Shown here: in pieces, positions 1 to 46,241 of the stretch
How the letters are laid out: every line of letters starts with the position of its first letter
How positions within the stretch are numbered: position 1 is the first letter of the stretch
Source: Nanobdellati archaeon
GTDB taxonomy: Archaea > EX4484-52 > GLR71
Length of the DNA: 64,000 nt
Direction of reading: 5' to 3'
Assembly (NCBI GenBank): GCA_019429005.1
Contig: JAHYJR010000001.1
Span: 195,232 to 259,231, forward strand
Made by a program: the position numbers and the translations under genes
Notes under the pieces: generated by a model
Databases searched by the model: none
What the model was told of the DNA's origin: nothing
Seen by the model: the letters and a program-made list of their open reading frames with translations, nothing else

Positions 1-274
1 ACTAACAATAATACTCTTTTTGGTATACCTAAGATTGATTCATTTATGGCACGAATAGATCTTGAGTAATTGTGTGTTATAGATTACATTTTGCATTTTG
101 ATTTAGGATTTATAATTCTGTGTATGTTATGTACAAACGAATATTTCAATTATTTCTAAGTTATATTAATTCTTAAAAATAAAATTAACAGTTAGATTAA
201 TACTTAAATTAATAATTTATCGTTAAATTAATAGTAACTATTTAACATTTTAATGTGAATATAGGTATTATACG

Positions 275-1612
275 ATGTGTGTGATTATTATGTCTTCTCA
301 ACAATTAAAAAAAATTCTTGATGATTTGAAAATAGTTATCGGTTCAAAAATCGTTGTTAAAACAAAAGATACTATTTATGAAGGTATTCTTATGCCTCGT
401 TCTGAGCTTTCAGATCAAAACACAATTGTTATGAAACTTGATAATGGATATAATGTAGGGATTCTGTATACTAAAGATGTTTCAATACAAGCCTCTAAAA
501 CCAAAGCTATTGTGAGAACTTTAGGTAAACAGAAACAAGTAAATCAGAAATTCGATCCCAAAAAACCAAAGATTTCTCTTGTATCAACAGGGGGCACAAT
601 ATCTGCGCGTGTTGATTATAAGACGGGTGGTGTTTATTTCCTGATGGACCCTGAAGAAATTCTTTCAGGTGTACCCGAACTTAAAGATATAATTAATCTT
701 GACAGTATAAAAAGTCCTTTTAAGGTAGGTAGTGAAGATATGTCACCAAAGGATTATATAGTTCTTGCAAAAACCATAGCAAAAGAGCTAAATTCTGGTG
801 CAGATGGTGTTATTGTAACACATGGTACTGATACACTTCATTATACGAGTGCTGCATTATCTTTTATGCTTAGGGATCTTTCAAAACCCGTCGCTCTTGT
901 TGGTGCTCAAAAATCCTCAGATCGAAGTAGTTTTGATGGTGCAATTAATCTAATCTGTGCTGCACGGTATGTTGCAAGTGATATGGCTGGTGTTGCTGTT
1001 GTTATGCATGGTAGTCTTAATGATGATTATTGTCTTGTAACGCCCGGTACTAAAGTTCGTAAGATGCATACTTCAAGACGTGATGCATTTAGGCCTATAA
1101 ATGCATTGCCTATTGCAAAAATTTGGCATGATGGTAAATGTGAGATAATTGATAAGGCTTATAAGAAAAAGTCAGATTCAAAAGTTACGCTTGATGCAAA
1201 GTTTGAGGATAAAGTTGCGATTGTGCATACCTATCCTGGTGCGAAAACGGACATTTTAGATTTTTATGTTGCTAATAGGTATAAAGGTATTGTGATTGGT
1301 GCAACTGCTTTAGGTCATGTGCCTTCATCATGGCTATCTTCATTAAAAAAAATGATTGATGCTGGTATTTCTGTTGTTATTGCGTCTCAGACTTTATATG
1401 GTAGTACACATCCTCATGTATATAGACAGCTTATTGAATTGGATAATATTGGTGTTATTTTTGTTAAGGATATGCTTCCAGAAGTTGCTTATATAAAATT
1501 AGGATGGGTTCTTGCACATGTTACAAAATCTGATGATGTTAAAAAGATGATGCTTGAAAATTATGCAGGTGAATTTACAACGTGTTTAACGCTTAATATG
1601 TTCCTTTATTAA
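275..1612 (+). CDS. gatD: Glutamyl-tRNA(Gln) amidotransferase subunit D (asparaginase-like domain)
   Basis: 445 aa. Asparaginase-type motifs TGGTIS and HGTDT; length and domain order typical of archaeal GatD. Alternative start at 290 (MSSQQ...). Confidence 0.88.
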   Translation: MCVIIMSSQQLKKILDDLKIVIGSKIVVKTKDTIYEGILMPRSELSDQNTIVMKLDNGYNVGILYTKDVSIQASKTKAIVRTLGKQKQVNQKFDPKKPKISLVSTGGTISARVDYKTGGVYFLMDPEEILSGVPELKDIINLDSIKSPFKVGSEDMSPKDYIVLAKTIAKELNSGADGVIVTHGTDTLHYTSAALSFMLRDLSKPVALVGAQKSSDRSSFDGAINLICAARYVASDMAGVAVVMHGSLNDDYCLVTPGTKVRKMHTSRRDAFRPINALPIAKIWHDGKCEIIDKAYKKKSDSKVTLDAKFEDKVAIVHTYPGAKTDILDFYVANRYKGIVIGATALGHVPSSWLSSLKKMIDAGISVVIASQTLYGSTHPHVYRQLIELDNIGVIFVKDMLPEVAYIKLGWVLAHVTKSDDVKKMMLENYAGEFTTCLTLNMFLY

Positions 1613-1635
1613 GATTTATGTTAATATTATAACAA

Positions 1636-1651
1636 TGTGTCATATGACACA
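1636..1651. promoter_or_regulatory. Perfect 16-bp palindrome TGTGTCATATGACACA, 12 bp upstream of the HD-like gene start
   Basis: Seen directly in the sequence. A near-identical palindrome TTGTGTCATTTGACACAA recurs at 39805-39822. Confidence 0.4.
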
Positions 1652-1662
1652 AAGGTGATTAT

Positions 1663-2250
1663 ATGATTGATAATGCAATAGAAAATACGCAAATATTTGT
1701 GTCTAAAAAGATGGGTCAAGACCCACTTTTTGGGTATCTTCATGCTGAGCGGGTTCGTATGAATGCACTTAAGCTTGCTGAAACGTTAGGTGGTAATAAA
1801 CAAATTGTTCAGATTGCAGCACTTTTTGATGATATATCTTTTAATAAAAATAATGTTGAGACTCATGCTATTGAAAGTGCCAATATCGCTAAGACATTTC
1901 TTGAACACGAACTTAAATTTCCAACCGTTAAAATTAATGCAATCTTGAATATAATAAAAAAACATGAGCGACGTGTGTGGTCTGAGGATTTTAAACCTGA
2001 AACTCTTGAAGAAAAAATTGTATTTGATGCTGAAGTGATGGAACGTGTGTCTGCACTTGGTTTTGTCAAATTTATACATACTGCTGGTACTCTTAATTTT
2101 AATAGTCGGGAATTGATAAATCTGCTTAATGATTTTATTGAAAATAATTATTCAGCTATATTTTTTGACGAGACTAAGAAACATCTTGAATGGGATTATA
2201 GGCTTGTTGGTACAATGCTTAAGAATATTAAGACTGAATGTGAATTTTAA
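1663..2250 (+). CDS. HD-domain-like hypothetical protein (putative phosphohydrolase fold; the HD dyad appears as F-D-D)
   Basis: 195 aa. Has H..R and AALFDDI motifs resembling an HD domain, but the canonical HD is replaced by DD. Sits between gatD and gatE. Confidence 0.4.
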   Translation: MIDNAIENTQIFVSKKMGQDPLFGYLHAERVRMNALKLAETLGGNKQIVQIAALFDDISFNKNNVETHAIESANIAKTFLEHELKFPTVKINAILNIIKKHERRVWSEDFKPETLEEKIVFDAEVMERVSALGFVKFIHTAGTLNFNSRELINLLNDFIENNYSAIFFDETKKHLEWDYRLVGTMLKNIKTECEF

Positions 2251-2265
2251 GTTATTGGTGTATAT

Positions 2266-4140
2266 ATGGTATCTCACGATTATAAAAAACTAAATTTCAA
2301 ATGTGGTTTGGAATTTCATCAAGCTCTTGATACTGGAAAATTATTTTGTTCTTGTTCAAGTAAACTTTCTGAAGAATTGTTTGTTACTTCAGTTGAGCGT
2401 CGTCTTAGGCCTGTTGCTGGTGAAACAGGAAATGTGGATCCTGCAGTTCTTTTTGAATCCTTTAGGGACCGATCTTTTGTTTATAATATATATGCAGGTG
2501 AATCTTGTCTTGTTGAGTTGGATTGTGAACCTCCGCACCCCGTAAACGCATTGGCTTTCGATGTTTCACTTAAGATTGCTTTGATGCTTAATCTTGATAT
2601 ACCTCATGAAATATTTTTTATGCGTAAGACTGTTAATGATGGTTCAGCAACATCTGGATTTCAAAGAACTGCTTTAATAGGTACTGGTAATATGAATTCA
2701 ATAATAAAAAGTTCATTTGGTGATGTGCATATAGAAAATATGAGTCTTGAAGAGGATGCTTCAAAAATAGAAAAACGTGAAGGTGCTAAGGTTTATTATT
2801 CTTTAAGTCGTTTGGGTATACCTCTTGTTGAAATAGGTACTGCACCTGAGATAAAAACACCTGAACATGCTTTAGATATTGCAAAAATTATAGGTACTTT
2901 TTTGAGATCTTTTAATGAAATTAAACGTGGTATTGGGACTATACGTCAAGATGTGAATATCTCAATCGCTGGTGGTGAACGGATTGAAGTTAAAGGTTGG
3001 CAAGATTTAAATAAATTACCGCGTTTGATTGAGAATGAAGTTTCAAGACAAATTTTTTTAATTGAATTTAAGAATTATTTGGTCGAGAAAAACTTCACTG
3101 AACTAAAAACGAATTCAGTGTGTGATGTGACTGATATATTCAAGACTTCAAAATCTAAATTAGTATCTCGGATGTTATCTGGTGATTCTGTTGTTCTCTC
3201 TCTTAAACTTGAAAACTTCAGTGAACAATTAAAACGTGATGTCTGTGTTGGTAAGACTTTTGGTAAGGAATTAGCTGAGTATGCTATGGCTTATGGTGTT
3301 AAGGGTATGATCCACAGTGATGAAGATCTTTCAAAATATGGTCTTGAAACTGAATTCAAAACACTTTCAAAATATCTTGACGCGAAAAAGAATGATCTTG
3401 TTTTAATTATAATTGAATCTGAATCTGTTGCAAAAAAAGCGATAAATTCTGTAATAGATCGTATTAATTATTGTCTTGTTGGTGTTCCTAAAGAGACTAG
3501 GGTACCAAATCATGTGCTTGCAACGACTAGTTATGCAAGACCCTTACCTGGTTCAGATCGTATGTATCCTGAAACTGATGTCGCATCTATTGTTATTGAT
3601 TCAATTACACTTAACAAAATTTCAAAAATGCTTCCCGAAACTCTTGATGCTAAACGGCAGCGTTTTGAGGCTAATTTAGGTATTAATGTAGAATTAGTGA
3701 ATGCGTTAATATCTTCTAAATATTTGTATCTTTTTGACATTTTATCTTCAAAATATGCACCTGTTGCAAAAGAAATTGCAAACTGTTTTGTGAATACTCT
3801 TTTTGATTTAAAATCTCGTGAAAATCTTGATATTGCTTTATTGGATGATATCTTTTTTGATGAGCTTTTTAGTCTTTTGATAAAACAAAAAATTAAAAAA
3901 GCAATAATTCCTTATATCTTGTCTGAAAAGATAAAAACACCTAATAAAACCATTTTAGATATATTAAGTGGTGTCGAAACAGTCTCTGATGTGGAAGTAC
4001 TATCTGTAATCAAAAAGTTGATTTCAGAAAACAAAGATGTATCAAAAAATGCGATAATGGGTATGGTTATGGCTAAGCTTCGTGGCAAAGTTGATGGAAA
4101 AGTTGTTTCTGATTTGGTTTTGAAACAATTTCAAAACTAA
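2266..4140 (+). CDS. gatE: Glutamyl-tRNA(Gln) amidotransferase subunit E
   Basis: 624 aa. N-terminus MVSHDYKKLNFKCGLEFHQ..L.TG.KLFC.C is the characteristic GatE start; length matches. GatB/YqeY-like C-terminal region. Confidence 0.88.
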   Translation: MVSHDYKKLNFKCGLEFHQALDTGKLFCSCSSKLSEELFVTSVERRLRPVAGETGNVDPAVLFESFRDRSFVYNIYAGESCLVELDCEPPHPVNALAFDVSLKIALMLNLDIPHEIFFMRKTVNDGSATSGFQRTALIGTGNMNSIIKSSFGDVHIENMSLEEDASKIEKREGAKVYYSLSRLGIPLVEIGTAPEIKTPEHALDIAKIIGTFLRSFNEIKRGIGTIRQDVNISIAGGERIEVKGWQDLNKLPRLIENEVSRQIFLIEFKNYLVEKNFTELKTNSVCDVTDIFKTSKSKLVSRMLSGDSVVLSLKLENFSEQLKRDVCVGKTFGKELAEYAMAYGVKGMIHSDEDLSKYGLETEFKTLSKYLDAKKNDLVLIIIESESVAKKAINSVIDRINYCLVGVPKETRVPNHVLATTSYARPLPGSDRMYPETDVASIVIDSITLNKISKMLPETLDAKRQRFEANLGINVELVNALISSKYLYLFDILSSKYAPVAKEIANCFVNTLFDLKSRENLDIALLDDIFFDELFSLLIKQKIKKAIIPYILSEKIKTPNKTILDILSGVETVSDVEVLSVIKKLISENKDVSKNAIMGMVMAKLRGKVDGKVVSDLVLKQFQN

Positions 4141-4200
4141 TTTAATTTTATATTGATATTTTTTAAAATAAGAACTATACTATAAAAAGGATAATTTAAC

Positions 4201-5373
4201 TTAGAAATTTAAACAGTTAAATTCTGTTTTCAAATCTTTTATTTTTTGATTTAATACTGTGTCTGTTATGTCTTGACTGTACTTGATTATTTCCGTAATC
4301 TTTTTATTGAATTCTTTAATAATCTGGGTTATTGGATGTTCTGCATATGTTTCTGTTTTGGTTGTTTTTGGTTCTAAATATGTGGGTTTTTGTGTTTCTT
4401 GTTCTTCTTCATCTTCGTTTGTATTTTTGATTGTATATAGTTCTTCGTCATCGATTCGGTTAGTACCTATTCTATGTGCATTTTGTGTATTTGATGTTTT
4501 TGGGTCCTTATAGTGTATTTTTGGATGTGTGTCTGTTGTTGTAGTATTTATGTCTGTTATATATTCTGTATTTATATTTGTTTCTGGATTTTTAATCGCA
4601 TTATATAGGTCTTCAGCATAAGTGTTTGTAAATTTATTTTTATATTTTGTAATTGTAGTTTTAAAATCTTTTACAGATCTGATTGTGTCATTAAAACGTT
4701 TTCGTCCAAGGTTTATATTACCCTCTCCGATTATATCATATAGGCTTTTTACAACCGTTTCATATTTTTCATAAAGTGTATTTGTTATGTTGTGTTTATT
4801 GTTTGCTTTTTGCACTATTGTTGCATCACCTTCTGCAATAAGTTTATTGAATTTTTTATCTATGTATGGGAGTATGTCTGCTTGTTGAGCATGTACTAAT
4901 TCGTGTGTTTTTACAGAGTCTTTATATTTTGTATCTGTTATTGAGGGGTCTAAGTATATTGAGATATGATCTGGTTTTATTTCAGTACCATTTAGTTTAT
5001 ATTTAATCTCTGTAAGACCTACTGTATTTGATGGCAATCTTGCAATTGTGTAATCTAATTCTGTAACGTCATATTTATGTTCTTTTGGTGTGTGTTTTAA
5101 TGTTTTTAGGTATCTTTCAGCTAAGTCAAATATATTATAATCTGGTTTGTTTGTTGTTGTATATTGTTTTAATATCTCTGTATTGTATTCGGGTTGTGTG
5201 TCTGTAATATATTTAGGTTGTATGTCTGTGATGTATTTTGGTTTTGTGTCTATTAAATATGGTGCTTGTTTGTTTGATATACCTAAATCTATTGTGTGTG
5301 TATCTGTTTTGTATTGTATTTGGGGAGCTACTATATATGCTGATTTCAAATCACTTAAATACATAAATAACAC
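4201..5373 (-). CDS. Thr/Asn/Lys-rich hypothetical protein with an HExxH-x19-E (gluzincin-like) motif; possible Zn metallopeptidase
   Basis: 390 aa. THELVHAQQ...(19 aa)...AEGDAT has the spacing of thermolysin-type zincins. Internal short repeats KYITDIQP/KYITDTQP. No recognisable signal peptide. Confidence 0.4.
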   Translation of the reverse strand: MLFMYLSDLKSAYIVAPQIQYKTDTHTIDLGISNKQAPYLIDTKPKYITDIQPKYITDTQPEYNTEILKQYTTTNKPDYNIFDLAERYLKTLKHTPKEHKYDVTELDYTIARLPSNTVGLTEIKYKLNGTEIKPDHISIYLDPSITDTKYKDSVKTHELVHAQQADILPYIDKKFNKLIAEGDATIVQKANNKHNITNTLYEKYETVVKSLYDIIGEGNINLGRKRFNDTIRSVKDFKTTITKYKNKFTNTYAEDLYNAIKNPETNINTEYITDINTTTTDTHPKIHYKDPKTSNTQNAHRIGTNRIDDEELYTIKNTNEDEEEQETQKPTYLEPKTTKTETYAEHPITQIIKEFNKKITEIIKYSQDITDTVLNQKIKDLKTEFNCLNF

Positions 5374-5570
5374 CTGATTTTTGTTAAAGTTAAAATTAGT
5401 TATATATATTTCATATTTATTTAATTTTATAAATATTTGTTAAATATTTGTGCTAACTCTCACAAAAATATGCTAGTTTTTAGGGTATTTTTTAACAGAT
5501 TAGCACGCTTGCTAACGTTTTATATCTAATACTGTATTTTTATTATTTTTTTGTCTGTTTTTTTATTTGT

Positions 5571-6623
5571 GTGAGACCAAACCTTTATTTAAACTGCGTT
5601 CTAAGATTATGTATGGTATTTAAGCATCTTGTCTTTTGGATTTCAGGAATTTTTGGAACTTCAAGGCCTGTGGTATACAAGGATGAGCTTGATGCTATTG
5701 TTGAAACTGTTGTGGGTGGGTTTTCAAAGATTAATTTACGTATTTCTCAAAGTGATAATGAACTTAGTCTTTTGAGACAATCTGTGCTTCAGACACAACA
5801 AATACCAATTAGTGTGAATCTTCCTCAATTAGATAGCCTTATTATGGGTTATTCTACGATTTCAGAACGTGTTCATGTTGTTGAGTCTAATAAAGATGTT
5901 ATTAGTAATAAATTATTTATTTTAGAATCGACGCTCTCGTCTCGTATTGATTCTATTGTGTCTCAAAAACTAGAATCTATGGGCTCTAGTACCATTTCCG
6001 GTTCTTTAACAACACCTCAAATACTTGAATCTTTGCGTGCTCTAGAATCTTCTGTAAATCATATTAAATCTGAGTTAGTTACACGTTCAACTGTTGAATC
6101 TAACAACGTTACAACACCTAACAACAACGTTACAACAGCAAATAACAATGTTACAACACCTAACAACAACGTTACAACACCTAATAACAACGTTACAACA
6201 CCTAATAACAATGTTACAACACCTAATAAGAACGTTACAACAGCAAATATGTCGTTTGATGATGATTTGACTGCACAAGACGATGTTTATGGGGGTTCCG
6301 TTGACTTTGGTCAGGGTGTACAAAACGTGTCTGGGCCAAAAGCTTTTGGTTTTAAACCTACTCGTACGGTTGTCACTTCGCGTAATATGAATAAAGTACT
6401 TGTTTCATCCTTAATACCTGTTTTTAATGAGCTTTTAAATGCTGAGAAATTTTTATCTTACTCTGAATTGTCTAAACGTCTAAATAAAAAAGAAGCAACG
6501 GCAAGAGCTTATGTTAATGCTTTGAAAACTTATGGTGTTTCTATTGATGAACAGACTGTTTCTAACGGGCGTAAGCTTGTAAGGCTTGCAAAGGATGTTG
6601 TGCGTAAATATCTTATTCCTTAA
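5571..6623 (+). CDS. Hypothetical repeat protein: coiled-coil N-region, 7 x NVTTPNNN tandem repeats, basic C-terminal domain
   Basis: 350-aa ORF, true start uncertain. Seven perfect or near-perfect 24-nt repeats at about 6102-6250. C-terminal 60 aa are helical and basic, possibly DNA-binding. Confidence 0.5.
   Translation: MRPNLYLNCVLRLCMVFKHLVFWISGIFGTSRPVVYKDELDAIVETVVGGFSKINLRISQSDNELSLLRQSVLQTQQIPISVNLPQLDSLIMGYSTISERVHVVESNKDVISNKLFILESTLSSRIDSIVSQKLESMGSSTISGSLTTPQILESLRALESSVNHIKSELVTRSTVESNNVTTPNNNVTTANNNVTTPNNNVTTPNNNVTTPNNNVTTPNKNVTTANMSFDDDLTAQDDVYGGSVDFGQGVQNVSGPKAFGFKPTRTVVTSRNMNKVLVSSLIPVFNELLNAEKFLSYSELSKRLNKKEATARAYVNALKTYGVSIDEQTVSNGRKLVRLAKDVVRKYLIP
6102..6250 (+). repeat. 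24-nt tandem repeat, 7 copies (aacaacgttacaacacctaat and variants) inside the coding region
   Basis: Seen directly in the sequence. Encodes (N)NVTTP/ANN repeats. Confidence 0.9.
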
Positions 6624-6642
6624 GATGTAATTCTTTATAGTT

Positions 6643-6775
6643 CCTGCTGTTATAACAGCAGGTTGTTATTCAATAACATTGTTATAACATTGTTATAACA
6701 CTATTTAATCAATATCTATAGTCTTATTTAATTATCTATACTGTTATAACACAGAATAACATTGTTATAACAGCT
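6643..6775. repeat. Array of GTTATAACA sites (5 exact plus 1 variant), beginning with a perfect 20-bp palindrome CCTGCTGTTATAACAGCAGG
   Basis: Seen directly in the sequence. The palindrome lies 20 bp after the stop of the repeat-protein gene; further copies fall within 130 bp. Confidence 0.6.
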
Positions 6776-8485
6776 ATAGAGACTACTGTTTTATATATCT
6801 TTCAACGTGTTTTTCATTAGTTAGGGGTTTATTAGTCACTGAAGCTTCATTGAACTTTTTTTTGAATTCACTGAAACTTCACTGCACTATAAAACTAAAA
6901 TATGTTTTTTGTGTGTGGGTGTTTTTATCGTTTTATAATCTTTTTGTTTTGCGTTTCCCTCTATTTCTATTGTTTTTTTCTGTTTTTTTGATCTGTTAGA
7001 ATCTTTGGGTTTGTGTATGTGTGTGTGTGTATGTGTTTGGATTTTGTTATTTGTGTTATTTTGGGTGGTGTCTATTAGTCTATGTTCTGTTATAATTTTC
7101 TACAAAAATAACCACTTTTTGTGAGGGTTAAACTTTTGTTTATTTATGTTGTTTGAATTTAGCTTTCTTATGGTCTTTATTGGCTCTTTTAGGTCTCCGT
7201 TTGTCTCGATTGTGGCATTTATTTTGTTTAACTCTATATTATTTAGTATTTCTTTGTCTTTTGCCCCCCCCCTTTAGTATTCTCATTTGATTTCGTTTAT
7301 TTTTCATTTAGATTTCAGGATCTTTTGTTTTCATTTTTTTTTGTCTATTTTTTTCAATTACTATCAATTTTCAGAATATTTGTTTTTATCTCTATTTTTG
7401 GCTTTTTTTTGTTATAACTCTCACATTTATATCTTATTTTATCCTAATTTGGGTTTATTTCCTGTTTTTATCTAATTTAAGCCTTTATCTGTAATCTAAA
7501 TCTATCTCTATTGTTGTATTTTCGTTGTGTTTAAGTCTTTTTAGAAAAAAATAGTTACTTTTGTTCCTTAGTTATCCTTTAGTCTGACACATCTTAACGT
7601 TTATCATGTATATCTTAGCGTTTAGTACTTTGTTTTTGTATTCCTGGTATCTGTCTCTTATTGTTCTGCGTTTCTATTATATCTCTTGAATTCTGCTCTA
7701 TATAGTACGTATTTTTTAATCGTATTATATTGCTATATTTACTGTATTTACTCTATATTGCTAGTGGTTTTTATGCTCTTTTTATTGTTTATTTTTGTAT
7801 CCTTATTTAATCTTGCTAGCACACTCTTTGGGGGTATATTTGTTTAACACAGATTTTTTATTTTACTATTTTTTTATTTTGCAGACTTTATTCACACATT
7901 TCACATTTTATTTAAATAGCTTCTGAATCTCTTTCAAATTAGACCTTAACTCTCACATTTAGTGGCTCATTTTATTTGTCTTTCTTTTTGAATTTGGGGT
8001 TTTTAAGTGTTTATTGTGCTGTTTTAACGCACTTTATACTATTTAGATTTTATTGTATTCTGCTGGTTTTTTAAAATGCTTTATATCTTTATAACACACC
8101 CGTTTTTAGGTTTTTTCCTTTCAAATGTGTATATGCCTACTGTTAAGCTCTATTTCTGTTAAATTAGATCTTGTCCTATTATATTTAGATTGTCTTATAG
8201 TTTCATAGTTTTGATATATCTTTTAAATACTACATATTATAAAACTCAATTTATACCAATAGACAAGCATATCTTTATATTGCTATATCACTAAATAAAT
8301 GGTTGTTTTATTGTCTATTGTGCTTAATAATACAGCTTATTTGGAGACAATAGCCCAAAATATGCAATCTTAGGCAAGAACTTAGTTATTTTGGCCTTTT
8401 CACGGCACAAAAATTCACAATTTTTTCATATTAGGTTTCTTTTAACTCTCTCTTTTTTTATTTTTTAAAATTCAGAACTTAGGCA

Positions 8486-41006: not shown

Positions 41007-42671
41007 TTATTTTTCAGATTTAAATTCTAGTTCTAGAACAACAACAGGCACGTCAATATCCCAGTTTGATATAACTTTGGGATGTAATGCACCTATAATT
41101 CCAATTTTTTTATTATCAACAATTATCTTAGCACCCCTACCTTCCATAAAGTATGGTTTATCACACTCTTCAAATCTATATTTGATTCCAATGTTTTCAA
41201 GAAGTCTTTCTGTAACTGCTTTAATCTCAGTATAATCTGAATCACTATGTGCGGTTACAGCTGCAAGATGTAATCGCTGTTTTGTTCTTGTATCTGTTTT
41301 TACATCTGGTTTGATCACATAATCAATATCAAACAATTTTTGTGGGTATTCTTTATGCTTATTGTTTGACAATGATTTGAGTACACTTGGTATTAACCAA
41401 GAACGTATCATATTGAAACTTTTTTCAGTTGATTCTCCAAGGTTTACATGTGGTTGTTCGGAAATATTCATTTTGTTATATTGTTCTTCTTTATTTGTTA
41501 TTACAAGTGTAAGACTTTCTTGATATCCAAAACCAATCATTTGTTCTTGTACTGTTTCTTTAAGTTTGGATTCTTCAGTTGTCCCACCTGTTGTCACAAC
41601 TAGGGGTATAACCATTTCAATATTTTCAAAGCCATATGCTCTCGCGACATCATCAGCTATATCAACATCATGTAATATATCGGTCCTATATGGTGGAATA
41701 AGTATCGTTAGTATGGTTTTATCTATATTTATGACATCATAGCCCATTTGCTCAAGGTATTTTTTCATTTTTTTTGCATCAATATTGATACCTATAAGTT
41801 TATTTACATAATCTACACTAATTTTTCTTGTTTCAGGAGTAAGATCTGGTGTAGTAATAGTTTTGTCTGCGTATTCTATATCCATTGAATATATTTTTCC
41901 ACCCATATCTGAAAATATTGTTACAAGTATATTGAGTATTACTTTTAGTGCGTTTAAATCACTACCACTGCATTCTATAAATATTTCTTTGGTATCTTCT
42001 GTAACTCTTCCACGTTTTTGTGAATTGATTATTGGTGGCATTGAAAGGATCTCATTGTTTGAATCAATAAATATAGGGTATTGTTTATGTTCTCTCAAAA
42101 GATGTGCATATTTCTGGCCTGTTGGATGTTTATCAAGTATCTCATATCCATTAAGTTCTTTATCAGATTCAAGTGGTACAAATCTGATATCTTTTGGATC
42201 TTTTGCAATATAATGGATTGGTAGTTTTATTTTTTCAAATGGATATATTCCTATTGCTGCTTTTTTTCTACCTCTTGCAAATGTTGCATGAAGTTTTTCT
42301 TGTACCCATATAAGTTCTTTTATTTTTTTATCATCAAATTCAAGACCTTTGACAATTGCTGCAACTGTATAAGGTCTTACATTTTTAGTTGATTTATCAA
42401 CTATAACTTTTTCTCCGGATTTAGTTATTTTGTATTCTTTAAGTCCCGTTTCTATACTCATATAACTTTTAAGTGCTCTTGCAAGACCATAAGTTGATAC
42501 CATATCAGGACGTTCTGCTGTGATATCAATTTTAAGTTCATCACCATCAATATCATCTAGTTCCATACCTAAATTAAATAAATTCTCTTCAAGTTCTTTG
42601 GTTGTTATATTTTTTCCAAGTAGTTTCTGTATTTTTGATAATTGTGTGTCAAGTGTAACCATTGTATTCAC
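41007..42671 (-). CDS. pheT: Phenylalanine--tRNA ligase beta subunit (archaeal)
   Basis: 554 aa. B3/4 and B5 domain arrangement, archaeal PheT length. Directly downstream of pheS. Confidence 0.9.
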   Translation of the reverse strand: MNTMVTLDTQLSKIQKLLGKNITTKELEENLFNLGMELDDIDGDELKIDITAERPDMVSTYGLARALKSYMSIETGLKEYKITKSGEKVIVDKSTKNVRPYTVAAIVKGLEFDDKKIKELIWVQEKLHATFARGRKKAAIGIYPFEKIKLPIHYIAKDPKDIRFVPLESDKELNGYEILDKHPTGQKYAHLLREHKQYPIFIDSNNEILSMPPIINSQKRGRVTEDTKEIFIECSGSDLNALKVILNILVTIFSDMGGKIYSMDIEYADKTITTPDLTPETRKISVDYVNKLIGINIDAKKMKKYLEQMGYDVINIDKTILTILIPPYRTDILHDVDIADDVARAYGFENIEMVIPLVVTTGGTTEESKLKETVQEQMIGFGYQESLTLVITNKEEQYNKMNISEQPHVNLGESTEKSFNMIRSWLIPSVLKSLSNNKHKEYPQKLFDIDYVIKPDVKTDTRTKQRLHLAAVTAHSDSDYTEIKAVTERLLENIGIKYRFEECDKPYFMEGRGAKIIVDNKKIGIIGALHPKVISNWDIDVPVVVLELEFKSEK

Positions 42672-44147
42672 CTATATCTCTCTTTTTGGAACTTTGTAAG
42701 TTCTCAACCATTCTAAATCACATGTTGGTCCAAGTAAATCATGTATACTGTTTTTATTATATACAAGCATAGCAAGTCTTTCTGGTGACAAACCCCATGC
42801 AATAACTGGAACATCTATATTGAATGGTTCAAGTGCTTCAGGTCTGAATATACCTGAATTTATAAGTTCTATCCATTTACCAAGACCTTCATGGTATGCG
42901 AATGCTTCCATACTTGGTTCAGTATATGGGTTGTATGTAGGTTTAAATTTGATTTTGTCTATTCCAAATTTGGAATAGAATTCTTTTATACTGCTTTTAA
43001 GGTTTCCAAGTGTCAAGTCTTTATCCATAATTAATCCTTCTACTTGGAAAAATTCAGCACCATGTGTTGCATCAAGTGCCTCATTTCTAAAAACTCTATC
43101 TATACAAAAATATTTTGCAGGTGGTTTTATTTTTTCAATTCCAAAATATCTGAATGTTGTTGCAGTTGTATGTGTTCTAAGCAAGACTTTTTTTGCTTCA
43201 TTATCATCCCATGCATAGCCATAACCCTTTGAACCACATTTACCTCCGGTTGTATGTACATTCTTAACCTTATCTACAATTTTTTTATCTGGAAGGTCTC
43301 CGATTAATGGTAAATGAAAAGTGTCTTGTGCTTCTCTTGCAGGATGATCTTGAGGTATAAACATTGAATCCATGCACCAAAACGCAGTCTCAACAAGTGG
43401 TCCATTCATCTCTTTAAAACCCATCTCAACAAACACATCTCGTATACGGTTCATTATAACTCTAAGTGGATGTTTTCGTCCATTATACATTTTTGCAACA
43501 GGTGCAACTACATTATATTTTCTAAAAGTCACATTTTTCCATTCACCTGTTGTAAGGTGCTTTGGTGTGAGTCTGCTAATTTCCTTTACAAGTTTAGTTT
43601 CATCTGCAACTTTTAATCCAATAGCAGTAGCTTTAATTGTTCTTATTGTCCTAAATGTGGATTTAATGAGAGATCTTTTTGTAAGTGTATCAATCATTTT
43701 TGAATCTATTTTGATGCCTTTTTTAATATTTTCAAGTGCGTCTTGAATAATATCTTTAGTTTTAAGGTATTTTTTACCAGTATCTGTTGCAACTACAAGA
43801 TTATTTTTATCTTTTTGTATGTCGATAAGACCTTGTTTTTTTGCAAAACCGACACCAACATTTTTATCTTTAATTTTAATCTTTTCAAGTTCTAGGCCAT
43901 TACCTATAGCTATAAGAATTTGACGTTCTGGAAGTCCATTTTTAATTATATTTACGCCTTTATCCGAAAGGTCTAAAACTAATTTATCTTCTTCTTTAAC
44001 ATTTGTAAGTTTTAATTTTGAAAGTGTCATACTAGCACGTATTACTGCAGCTTGGTCAATATCTGTTATATCATTAAGACAGATATCATTTTTTTCAAGA
44101 AGTTTCTTTAATAAAAGTATTTCATGGTACTGAAGATTGTATTTCAT
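42672..44147 (-). CDS. pheS: Phenylalanine--tRNA ligase alpha subunit (archaeal)
   Basis: 491 aa. Class II motifs: motif 2 FRNE..D..H..EF.Q.EG and motif 3 GLSPERLAML. Confidence 0.9.
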   Translation of the reverse strand: MKYNLQYHEILLLKKLLEKNDICLNDITDIDQAAVIRASMTLSKLKLTNVKEEDKLVLDLSDKGVNIIKNGLPERQILIAIGNGLELEKIKIKDKNVGVGFAKKQGLIDIQKDKNNLVVATDTGKKYLKTKDIIQDALENIKKGIKIDSKMIDTLTKRSLIKSTFRTIRTIKATAIGLKVADETKLVKEISRLTPKHLTTGEWKNVTFRKYNVVAPVAKMYNGRKHPLRVIMNRIRDVFVEMGFKEMNGPLVETAFWCMDSMFIPQDHPAREAQDTFHLPLIGDLPDKKIVDKVKNVHTTGGKCGSKGYGYAWDDNEAKKVLLRTHTTATTFRYFGIEKIKPPAKYFCIDRVFRNEALDATHGAEFFQVEGLIMDKDLTLGNLKSSIKEFYSKFGIDKIKFKPTYNPYTEPSMEAFAYHEGLGKWIELINSGIFRPEALEPFNIDVPVIAWGLSPERLAMLVYNKNSIHDLLGPTCDLEWLRTYKVPKREI

Positions 44148-44162
44148 ATAATCATCCTTTTC

Positions 44163-44405
44163 TTAATTTATCATTTTGTAGCTTCCAAAAGTATAAAGTA
44201 CTGACACCTTCCTTTTTAACATTTCTAATGCATCATTTATATCTTTTTGTGTTTGTCCTGATTCAATTTTTGTTTTAAGCACATATTCTACTAGTTTCAT
44301 CCTTTAAGCTATCAATTCAAGAATCTTATTATTGATTGTATCAATATATACTCGCACCTCTTCAAGGCTCACATATTTTTTTTGTTGGTTTTTAATCTCT
44401 GTCAT
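44163..44405 (-). pseudogene. AroQ-type chorismate-mutase-like ORF interrupted by an in-frame TAA
   Basis: Minus-strand reading MTEIKNQQKKYVSLEEVRVYIDTINNKILELIA-[TAA]-RMKLVEYVLKTKIESG... parallels archaeal chorismate mutase (IDEIDNKILKLIAERNSLAKDV). The stop replaces the conserved Glu of the LIAER motif; a single G-to-T change would explain it. Confidence 0.35.
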
Positions 44406-44655
44406 ATAAATCACAATTTAAATTTATTAATTTTAAAGCTATGGCTATAATTAAAAGTTCTTATAAAAATGTCTATTAGTAATGTCTTTATAGCTAAATC
44501 TAAGAAAACGTATACAGGTGCTTTTATGCTTGTATAAATTGGTGGTACATCACATCACGTATTAAATTATTTTGGTTTAAACTTTTTAAATGTTGTTTTG
44601 TTTGAAAAGACTAAGTTTTATAAAATATTTGTAGTAATTATATTTAGGTATATTT

Positions 44656-45099
44656 ATGAGTGATTTAAAAGCAGATTTCCACATATTAACTTTTATCAAA
44701 GAACAAGGTTATTCTGTAGGATTACAGACACTAAATAGTAGGGGTAAACGCTATACTCTCAAAAATTTTGATGATACTTATTTAGTAGTAGAACATGATT
44801 CCGATTTAAAGCAAATTATGCCAATTGAAAATATGCTTAAAATTATATTTAATACAGATATTTATTCTCGAGATGAATTAATCTTGGCTTTTGAAGCTAA
44901 TTATGAGATGTTTAAGGATTTAACCAAATCAGAATTTATAAAACCTCTTATAAATGAAAATATTCATTTTAAAACAATCAGTTCAAGTGAGTATGAGGGT
45001 CTTTTGATTGACGCAGATTCTCGCGGTCTATTAATTGATATATATAATGCTGAACCTGTATATGTCTTTAACCATGATATCCAATCGATTTATTTTTAA
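44656..45099 (+). CDS. Hypothetical protein
   Basis: 147 aa, no recognised motifs. Confidence 0.35.
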   Translation: MSDLKADFHILTFIKEQGYSVGLQTLNSRGKRYTLKNFDDTYLVVEHDSDLKQIMPIENMLKIIFNTDIYSRDELILAFEANYEMFKDLTKSEFIKPLINENIHFKTISSSEYEGLLIDADSRGLLIDIYNAEPVYVFNHDIQSIYF

Positions 45100-45122
45100 G
45101 AAGATTATTTGATTTTGAGATT

Positions 45123-46241
45123 TCAATCTTTAACCAAAAATTTATCAAGAACATCTTTTGCTTTTTCACGTTTTTCTTGGTGCTTTTCAAGAAATTTAAC
45201 AACGCGTTCAGAAAGGTCTTTTTTACATTCACCACAAAGTATTTTACCCTCTTTACAAGCTTTTTGTCGCTTTTCAAGTTTTGCATCATTTTCTTCAAAA
45301 ATAAATTTGAAATAACTGAATACAGAACAGATTTCTGAATTTCCACCCTTTTTTCTTTGTTCTTCAATACTTGCTTGACCGCCTGTAAATGCTGACATTA
45401 CTTTCTTTTTTGCAGTTTTCAAATCATCTGTTGTAAATATGGCTGAATCTGGTTTTGATGCAGACATCTTGCCACCTTCAACAAGTCCAGGCATAAACAT
45501 TCCTTGAACTGATGCTGGTTTATAATATCCTAATTTAGGCATAACATCTCTTGCAACTCTGAAATGCGGATCCTGGTCTATAGCATGTGGTATTAGGCAA
45601 GGTATGTTTTTACCTTGTTCTACCGATTCAAGAAATGCAGGTACTGCTTGCATGCTTGTGTAAAAAATCTGCCCCACATTCGTATCGTTTCCAAAACCAA
45701 ATGTTGCTTTTGCTGTTGAGAATGTTATCTTTTTGGCAACTCGGGTTGCATGATAATAAAATGTTTTTGCATTATCGTAATCAGAATATATCTTAGTCTT
45801 CTTTGGATTGAATCCAAGCGCAATGACATCAAGTGCATTCTCATATGCAAAATGTTTTGTGGTTTCAATATCTAATTTGCTGTTTGTTAAGAATTTTTCA
45901 TCATCGGTCATTTGAAAAAACAATTTAACATCAAATTTATCTTGTAACCATTTTGTTAAAAACCATGGAAATAAATGACCTAAATGTGTATTTCCAGATG
46001 GACCACGTCCTGTATACAAAAAGAATTTGTTGCCTTTTTCATATTCATCAAGTATCCAGTTAAGGTCACGGTGTGCAAAAAATAAATTTCGTCTTAAGGT
46101 TGGATGAAGTTCTCCAGTATGTTTTTTAATTCTTTCTAATAACTTTTTATCTATAATTTGTACACCGAAATCTTTTACAACTTTATCATAATCTATATCT
46201 CCAGTGACTTCCCAGGGTGTTACTTTGAATTCTTTTGACAT
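45123..46241 (-). CDS. trpS: Tryptophan--tRNA ligase (archaeal type)
   Basis: 372 aa. Class I motifs: GRGPSGNTHLGHL (HIGH region) and KMSASKP (KMSKS). C-terminal Cys cluster (CSVF...C..C..CGEC). TyrRS cannot be fully excluded. Confidence 0.75.
   Translation of the reverse strand: MSKEFKVTPWEVTGDIDYDKVVKDFGVQIIDKKLLERIKKHTGELHPTLRRNLFFAHRDLNWILDEYEKGNKFFLYTGRGPSGNTHLGHLFPWFLTKWLQDKFDVKLFFQMTDDEKFLTNSKLDIETTKHFAYENALDVIALGFNPKKTKIYSDYDNAKTFYYHATRVAKKITFSTAKATFGFGNDTNVGQIFYTSMQAVPAFLESVEQGKNIPCLIPHAIDQDPHFRVARDVMPKLGYYKPASVQGMFMPGLVEGGKMSASKPDSAIFTTDDLKTAKKKVMSAFTGGQASIEEQRKKGGNSEICSVFSYFKFIFEENDAKLEKRQKACKEGKILCGECKKDLSERVVKFLEKHQEKREKAKDVLDKFLVKD

Follow-up and report, generated by a model that had tools for sequence, protein, structure and literature searches.

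The third helix of genuine AroQ chorismate mutases supplies Ser84 and Gln88 and thereby completes the active site (residue numbers here and below follow the E. coli chorismate mutase). In the E. coli enzyme, the active site is made up of Arg28, Lys39, Asp48, Arg51, Glu52 and Gln88, together with Arg11 from the other monomer (PMC5526877). The AroQ fold is also found in the N-terminal chorismate-mutase-like domain of the B. subtilis DAHP synthase, which has a regulatory, ligand-binding role and reduced catalysis (PMC5526877). Amongst the DPANN archaea, chorismate mutase is patchily distributed (PMC10266531, PMC11237513): the nanohaloarchaeon BNXNv carries a post-chorismate operon (PMC10266531), and fusions of chorismate mutase to prephenate dehydratase(-dehydrogenase) occur in a few members of the group, including Ca. 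Huberarchaea (PMC11237513). Given this patchiness of AroQ in DPANN, it is plausible that a remnant of the gene should be encountered in one lineage.

The locus described here, which lies upstream of pheS in a DPANN archaeon, is probably a decaying, non-functional pseudogene of a stand-alone AroQ-class chorismate mutase that now forms the first cistron or leader of pheS-pheT. It occupies an 80-codon frame on the minus strand (44405..44163; positions refer to the window, i.e., the whole 64 kb stretch of DNA that was analysed), with the translation MTEIKNQQKKYVSLEEVRVYIDTINNKILELIA, a stop, RMKLVEYVLKTKIESGQTQKDINDALEMLKRKVSVLYTFGSYKMIN and a terminal stop (Table 1). The internal in-frame TAA reported by the original prediction was confirmed on this strand at 44304-44306, where it is followed by AGG (Arg) and then ATG. 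The open reading frame listing splits the frame in two, giving one ORF of 33/36 codons and a second of 45 codons. The equivalent of Arg11 (R18 of the remnant) is located in the 5' segment, while the 3' segment carries the equivalents of Lys39 and Asp48 and has Asp and Ala at the positions of Arg51 and Glu52. The final 15 residues of the frame (VSVLYTFGSYKMIN) have no match to anything. The ribosome-binding site of pheS, AAAGGATGAT, lies at 44151-44160 (minus strand).

Table 1. Features of the chorismate-mutase remnant and its neighbouring genes (window positions), and the state of key residues (E. coli chorismate mutase numbering).
Feature	Position	Strand	Remarks
trpS	45123-46241	-	
Shine-Dalgarno-like GTGAT	44410..44414	-	4 nt upstream of the ATG at 44405; read from the sequence
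5' segment of remnant, 33 codons	44307..44405	-	N-terminal extension and first part of helix 1
In-frame TAA	44304..44306	-	at the conserved Glu27 position
3' segment of remnant, 46 codons	44166..44303	-	AGG (Arg28 equivalent), rest of helix 1, degenerate helix 2
Terminal TAA of remnant frame	44163..44165	-	at the point corresponding to the start of the helix 2-helix 3 loop in a normal AroQ
15-nt spacer, remnant to pheS	44148..44162	-	same reading frame; holds the pheS ribosome-binding site
pheS (PheRS alpha subunit)	42672-44147	-	intact; annotated phenylalanine--tRNA ligase subunit alpha, DPANN group archaeon
pheT (PheRS beta subunit)	41007-42671	-	intact
Arg11, Arg28, Lys39, Asp48			kept in remnant
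Asp18			Asn in remnant
Pro45			Thr in remnant
Arg51			Asp in remnant
Glu52			Ala in remnant
Ser84, Gln88			absent from remnant

The public annotation (PGAP) calls the 3' half alone and places no pseudogene flag on the disrupted gene. From the ATG at 44300 (44166-44300, minus strand) it predicts a 45-aa hypothetical protein, K0B02_01190 (MBW6451329.1), which is identical to our 45-codon ORF, just as MBW6451328.1 is identical to PheS; both entries come from a 287 kb contig of a 'DPANN group archaeon' MAG. The annotation should be corrected, in that K0B02_01190 (MBW6451329.1) belongs to a disrupted aroQ gene and covers its 3' half.

The similarity to chorismate mutase on which the original prediction was founded proved to be real. 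With Glu placed at the stop, the translated frame matched the Pfam family CM_2 (PF01817) at 34.2 bits (E 3e-8), and with X at the stop at 31.7 bits (E 1.8e-7); the gathering score, 27, was exceeded both times. Neither half matched CM_2 by itself. A local AroQ HMM, for which 52 AroQ proteins of 85-110 residues were taken from databases, gave 41.2 bits with X at the stop, as against a maximum of 8.3 bits amongst 2000 shuffles of the same residues. Scored alone against this model, the 5' segment reached 19.0 bits (model positions 5-25) and the 3' segment 9.6 bits (model positions 27-58). Across the stop the alignment stays collinear, and the TAA takes up exactly one position of the model. With four chorismate mutases as bridges, MAFFT aligned the two halves correctly. 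Further to this, the top six PDB matches were all chorismate mutases or chorismate-mutase domains (3nvt, 1ecm, 5vht, 2d8d, 1ybz and 5j6f), with E-values that individually reached just 0.01-0.1. The best pairwise identity, approximately 50%, was to the Methanocaldococcus AroQ across helix 1 and the start of helix 2, with 46-57% of the frame aligned. On sequence grounds, these comparisons show the 80-codon frame to be an AroQ homologue that corresponds to helix 1 and the first half of helix 2.

A short, Lys/Glu-rich, helical sequence with such modest PDB E-values might be suspected of resembling chorismate mutase by accident, as an AT-rich, helix-prone intergenic frame could. This can be given practically no credence: the Pfam score exceeds a curated threshold, four invariant catalytic residues are in register, and the score of the local model lies far above that of every shuffled sequence. 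Chance similarity was thus refuted by the shuffle test and the CM_2 score.

The residue that the stop replaces was also correctly identified as a conserved Glu. The corresponding column of the local AroQ set holds Glu in 42/52 proteins, Gln in 5/52 and Lys in 4/52, and it corresponds to E27 of the E. coli enzyme rather than to the catalytic Glu52. The proposed GAA to TAA change does require a single substitution, as would a change to TAA from CAA or AAA.

The premature stop is not the only defect in this gene. The match extends across positions 1-49 of 80 in Pfam CM_2 and 5-57 of 97 in the local model, leaving local model positions 58-97 unmatched. Six-frame searches with the AroQ HMM detected no match to helix 3, either in the region 43900-44700 or in the whole 64 kb window, which rules out a helix 3 hidden in another frame by a frameshift; nor did the search of the whole window find a second copy of chorismate mutase. 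The frame, at 80 codons, is shorter than the 90-100 of real AroQ enzymes. The family columns that are substituted in the remnant (Asp18, Pro45, Arg51 and Glu52) are 92-98% conserved. Approximately 20 NCBIfam chorismate-mutase equivalog models all scored far below their cut-offs, the best being CM_P_1 (32.3 bits, cut-off 73.7) and CM_archaeal (30.8 bits, cut-off 66.95). The sequence thus matches the AroQ family profile and has neither an uninterrupted frame, nor the three-helix architecture, nor the full set of active-site residues. Clear homology to a family combined with disabling lesions, in this case a nonsense codon and the loss of helix 3 and of invariant residues, is what characterises a pseudogene. 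With Arg51, Glu52 and Asp18 lost and no helix 3, neither repair of the TAA to GAA nor its read-through would give a canonical chorismate mutase. Of the three options raised by the original prediction, pseudogenisation is therefore the favoured one, but the implied picture of an otherwise intact gene a single substitution away from function does not hold, as helix 3, Arg51, Glu52 and Asp18 are gone.

A second option was that the TAA is an artefact. The TAA might be an error in the consensus of the metagenome assembly, or a variant carried by a minority strain, and the locus might encode a real 80-residue, two-helix chorismate-mutase-like protein with a non-catalytic role, e.g., ligand binding. 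The preserved ribosome-binding site and start codon, the gene-like codon usage of both halves and the retained equivalents of Arg11, Arg28, Lys39 and Asp48 all speak for this, and chorismate-mutase-like regulatory domains with reduced catalysis do exist, such as that at the N-terminus of the B. subtilis DAHP synthase (PMC5526877). We nevertheless regard it as unlikely. Consensus substitution errors are rare, the other genes of the window show no sign of damage, and nothing there suggests a generally error-ridden assembly. The proposed protein would also be a two-helix AroQ fragment in which one third of the fold, and likewise of the binding pocket, is missing, and no family of similar proteins lacking helix 3 was found. 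A word-based search of 5.8 billion protein clusters with the joined protein revealed no close homologue, returning only the ORF itself, and the single match from a metagenome scan was a bacterial DAHP synthase-chorismate mutase fusion (L003) that shares the motif ELIAERMK. Moreover, a sequencing error at the TAA would leave the helix 3, Arg51/Glu52 and other defects in place.

The remaining option was stop-codon read-through. Programmed read-through or recoding of the TAA would give a full-length product, and the homology does indeed run on in frame past the stop. However, TAA is the main terminator in this window, ending 36 of the 52 large ORFs (TGA ends 10 and TAG 6), and no other gene here contains one in frame: when the window was scanned for frames interrupted by one stop, only ordinary neighbouring genes came up. 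The window encodes four tRNAs (Gln-CUG, Cys, Phe and Asn), none of which reads UAA, and no reassignment of TAA is known in archaea. The read-through product would, in any case, still be without helix 3, Arg51 and Glu52. Nothing in the window hints at recoding, which is disfavoured, and read-through of this codon is highly improbable.

A decaying pseudogene thus remains the preferred reading, and several features of the locus bear on the age of the decay. The motifs GGTG/GTGA occur at -15..-4 upstream of 15/52 start codons in the window, compared with 3.7% of random 12-mers, and Shine-Dalgarno-led initiation therefore appears to be used for many genes of this DPANN archaeon. The remnant retains such a motif at its own start (Table 1); no GGTG/GTGA motif precedes the internal ATG at 44300. 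The in-frame codon-usage score is 0.33 for the 5' segment and 0.39 for the 3' segment, for which the reference values are 0.47 +/- 0.19 in genes and -0.94 +/- 0.35 off frame. That the start codon and ribosome-binding site survive, and that codon usage is still gene-like, suggests that the decay is fairly recent. These same features, along with the retained Arg11, Arg28, Lys39 and Asp48 equivalents, would be compatible, too, with continued expression of the gene.

The remnant may well still be transcribed together with pheS-pheT, forming the first cistron or the 5' leader of that operon, since it is separated from pheS by a gap of only 15 nt with no T-run terminator between them. Translation from its start codon would yield at most a 33-residue peptide and possibly, via re-initiation at the ATG 3 nt past the stop, a 45-residue one, neither of which could be a chorismate mutase. 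Re-initiation at this ATG (44300) would leave the codon for the catalytic Arg28 untranslated between the two peptides.

This arrangement raises the question of whether pheS-pheT expression is influenced by translation of the remnant, which might have been retained as a single upstream ORF or as two (33 and 45 codons, with stop and restart at TAA-AGG-ATG). Its position 15 nt from pheS, in the same frame and with no obvious terminator between the two, would suit such a role, as would the good ribosome-binding site on the first ORF. In addition, the 9-mer AAAGGATGA occurs just twice in the window, once at the stop/restart site and once in the pheS ribosome-binding site. On the other hand, the arrangement is missing from three relatives (L001, L004 and L006) and conservation gives no support; there is no Phe-rich leader, with Phe codons numbering 0 and 1 in the two ORFs. 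The 9-mer, for its part, is explained by the coding sequence for the conserved Glu-Arg-Met-Lys, which is also present in the bacterial chorismate mutase L003, and at least two copies of it arose in 28/100 shuffles of the window. We consider retention as upstream ORFs distinctly unlikely. Very unlikely, too, are the more specific proposals that aroQ has been exapted as a translated leader tuning pheS-pheT, or as a helix-3-less, chorismate-mutase-like ligand-binding peptide that links aromatic metabolites to Phe-tRNA charging.

The two copies of AAAGGATGA lie at 44297-44305 and 44152-44160 (minus strand), as against an expectation of approximately 1.1 for the 64 kb window. Their recurrence is probably a coincidence, given that the conserved Glu-Arg-Met-Lys motif accounts for the first copy.

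The genes downstream of the remnant are recognised by the Pfam families tRNA-synt_2d, B5, tRNA_synthFbeta and PhetRS_B1. An ancestral fusion of chorismate mutase to PheS, with which the remnant shares its reading frame, was considered and ruled out, as PheS is full length (491 aa, compared with 491-510 in relatives). The TAG stop of pheS abuts the first possible start of pheT, a GTG in the same frame (42671-42674, minus strand); judging by the N-terminus of Huberarchaeum PheT, the real start is probably the ATG three codons after this GTG.

On the minus strand, the gene order is trpS, remnant, pheS, pheT. Across 41007-46241, this row is broken only by a plus-strand ORF of 147 aa (44656-45099) that has no family match. 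The row has the appearance of a cluster with an aromatic amino acid theme; aminoacyl-tRNA synthetase genes are abundant in the window anyway. Pfam searches of the divergent intergenic region 44400-44660 found nothing in one forward and three reverse frames, and Rfam reported no RNA family in or near the locus, its sole match being a sub-threshold snoRNA inside the ORF at 44656-45099.

The window as a whole has a G+C content of approximately 30% and its genes are mostly concerned with information processing. They include several aminoacyl-tRNA synthetases and the ribosomal proteins L1, L10 and L11, as well as FtsZ, MCM, topoisomerase VI, TBP, initiation factors and GatD/E. Away from the remnant, the region 6624-8485 (approximately 1.9 kb) contains no ORF of at least 60 aa, other than two short low-complexity ones; AATAACATTGTTATAACA, with the palindromic core TGTTATAACA, occurs there three times (6672, 6683 and 6755). 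The GC skew is +0.17..+0.21 over positions 1-6000 and approximately zero or negative thereafter. The region may be of the replication-origin type or another regulatory non-coding region. The preceding ORF (5571-6623, plus strand) encodes a putative 350-aa protein with TPNNNVT repeats, which are specified by seven tandem copies of a 21-nt unit at 6101-6249.

No shikimate or aromatic-pathway families are present among the Pfam families listed for the 52 large ORFs of the 64 kb window, two of the three lists giving 25 out of 34-36 families. This and the DPANN origin of the sequence are consistent with a loss of aromatic amino-acid biosynthesis, of which the decaying gene would be a leftover. Chorismate mutase may have become dispensable in a host-dependent, biosynthetically reduced lineage, after which the gene would have been free to decay. 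On this reading, the gene belongs to a known family and is a pseudogene of an ordinary kind, as reduced genomes contain, and it points to no new mechanism and no new genetic code. Its interest lies in showing what may be the reductive evolution of aromatic amino-acid metabolism, caught in progress in a DPANN lineage, and it could serve as a small marker of pathway loss.

The nearest relatives of the PheS protein share 50-62% identity with it. No chorismate-mutase-like frame was found upstream of pheS in Ca. Huberarchaeum crystalense (L001), GCA_034716135.1 (L004) or GCA_030636325.1 (L006), and it is on these three that the comparison rests, as the sequences of L002 and L005 end at pheS.

Set beside the known systems, the remnant differs from each in its own way. 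Its best PDB sequence match, 3nvt, belongs with 5j6f to the chorismate-mutase-like domains of the B. subtilis/Listeria DAHP synthases, which keep all three helices and are fused to a regulated enzyme, whereas the remnant is missing helix 3 and has no fusion partner. The chorismate mutase genes of other DPANN archaea are intact and found beside, or fused to, pheA, tyrA or an aminotransferase gene; in contrast, the remnant is broken and stands alone next to aminoacyl-tRNA synthetase genes. A further comparison is with the stand-alone, all-helical AroQ (type II) enzymes, as represented by the Methanocaldococcus jannaschii chorismate mutase and the chorismate mutase domain of the E. coli P-protein (1ecm), with which the remnant can be aligned gap-free over helix 1 and the beginning of helix 2. 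Compared with these enzymes, the remnant has a nonsense codon at Glu27, Asp in place of Arg51, Ala in place of Glu52, Asn in place of Asp18 and no helix 3, while the equivalents of Arg11, Arg28, Lys39 and Asp48 have been kept.
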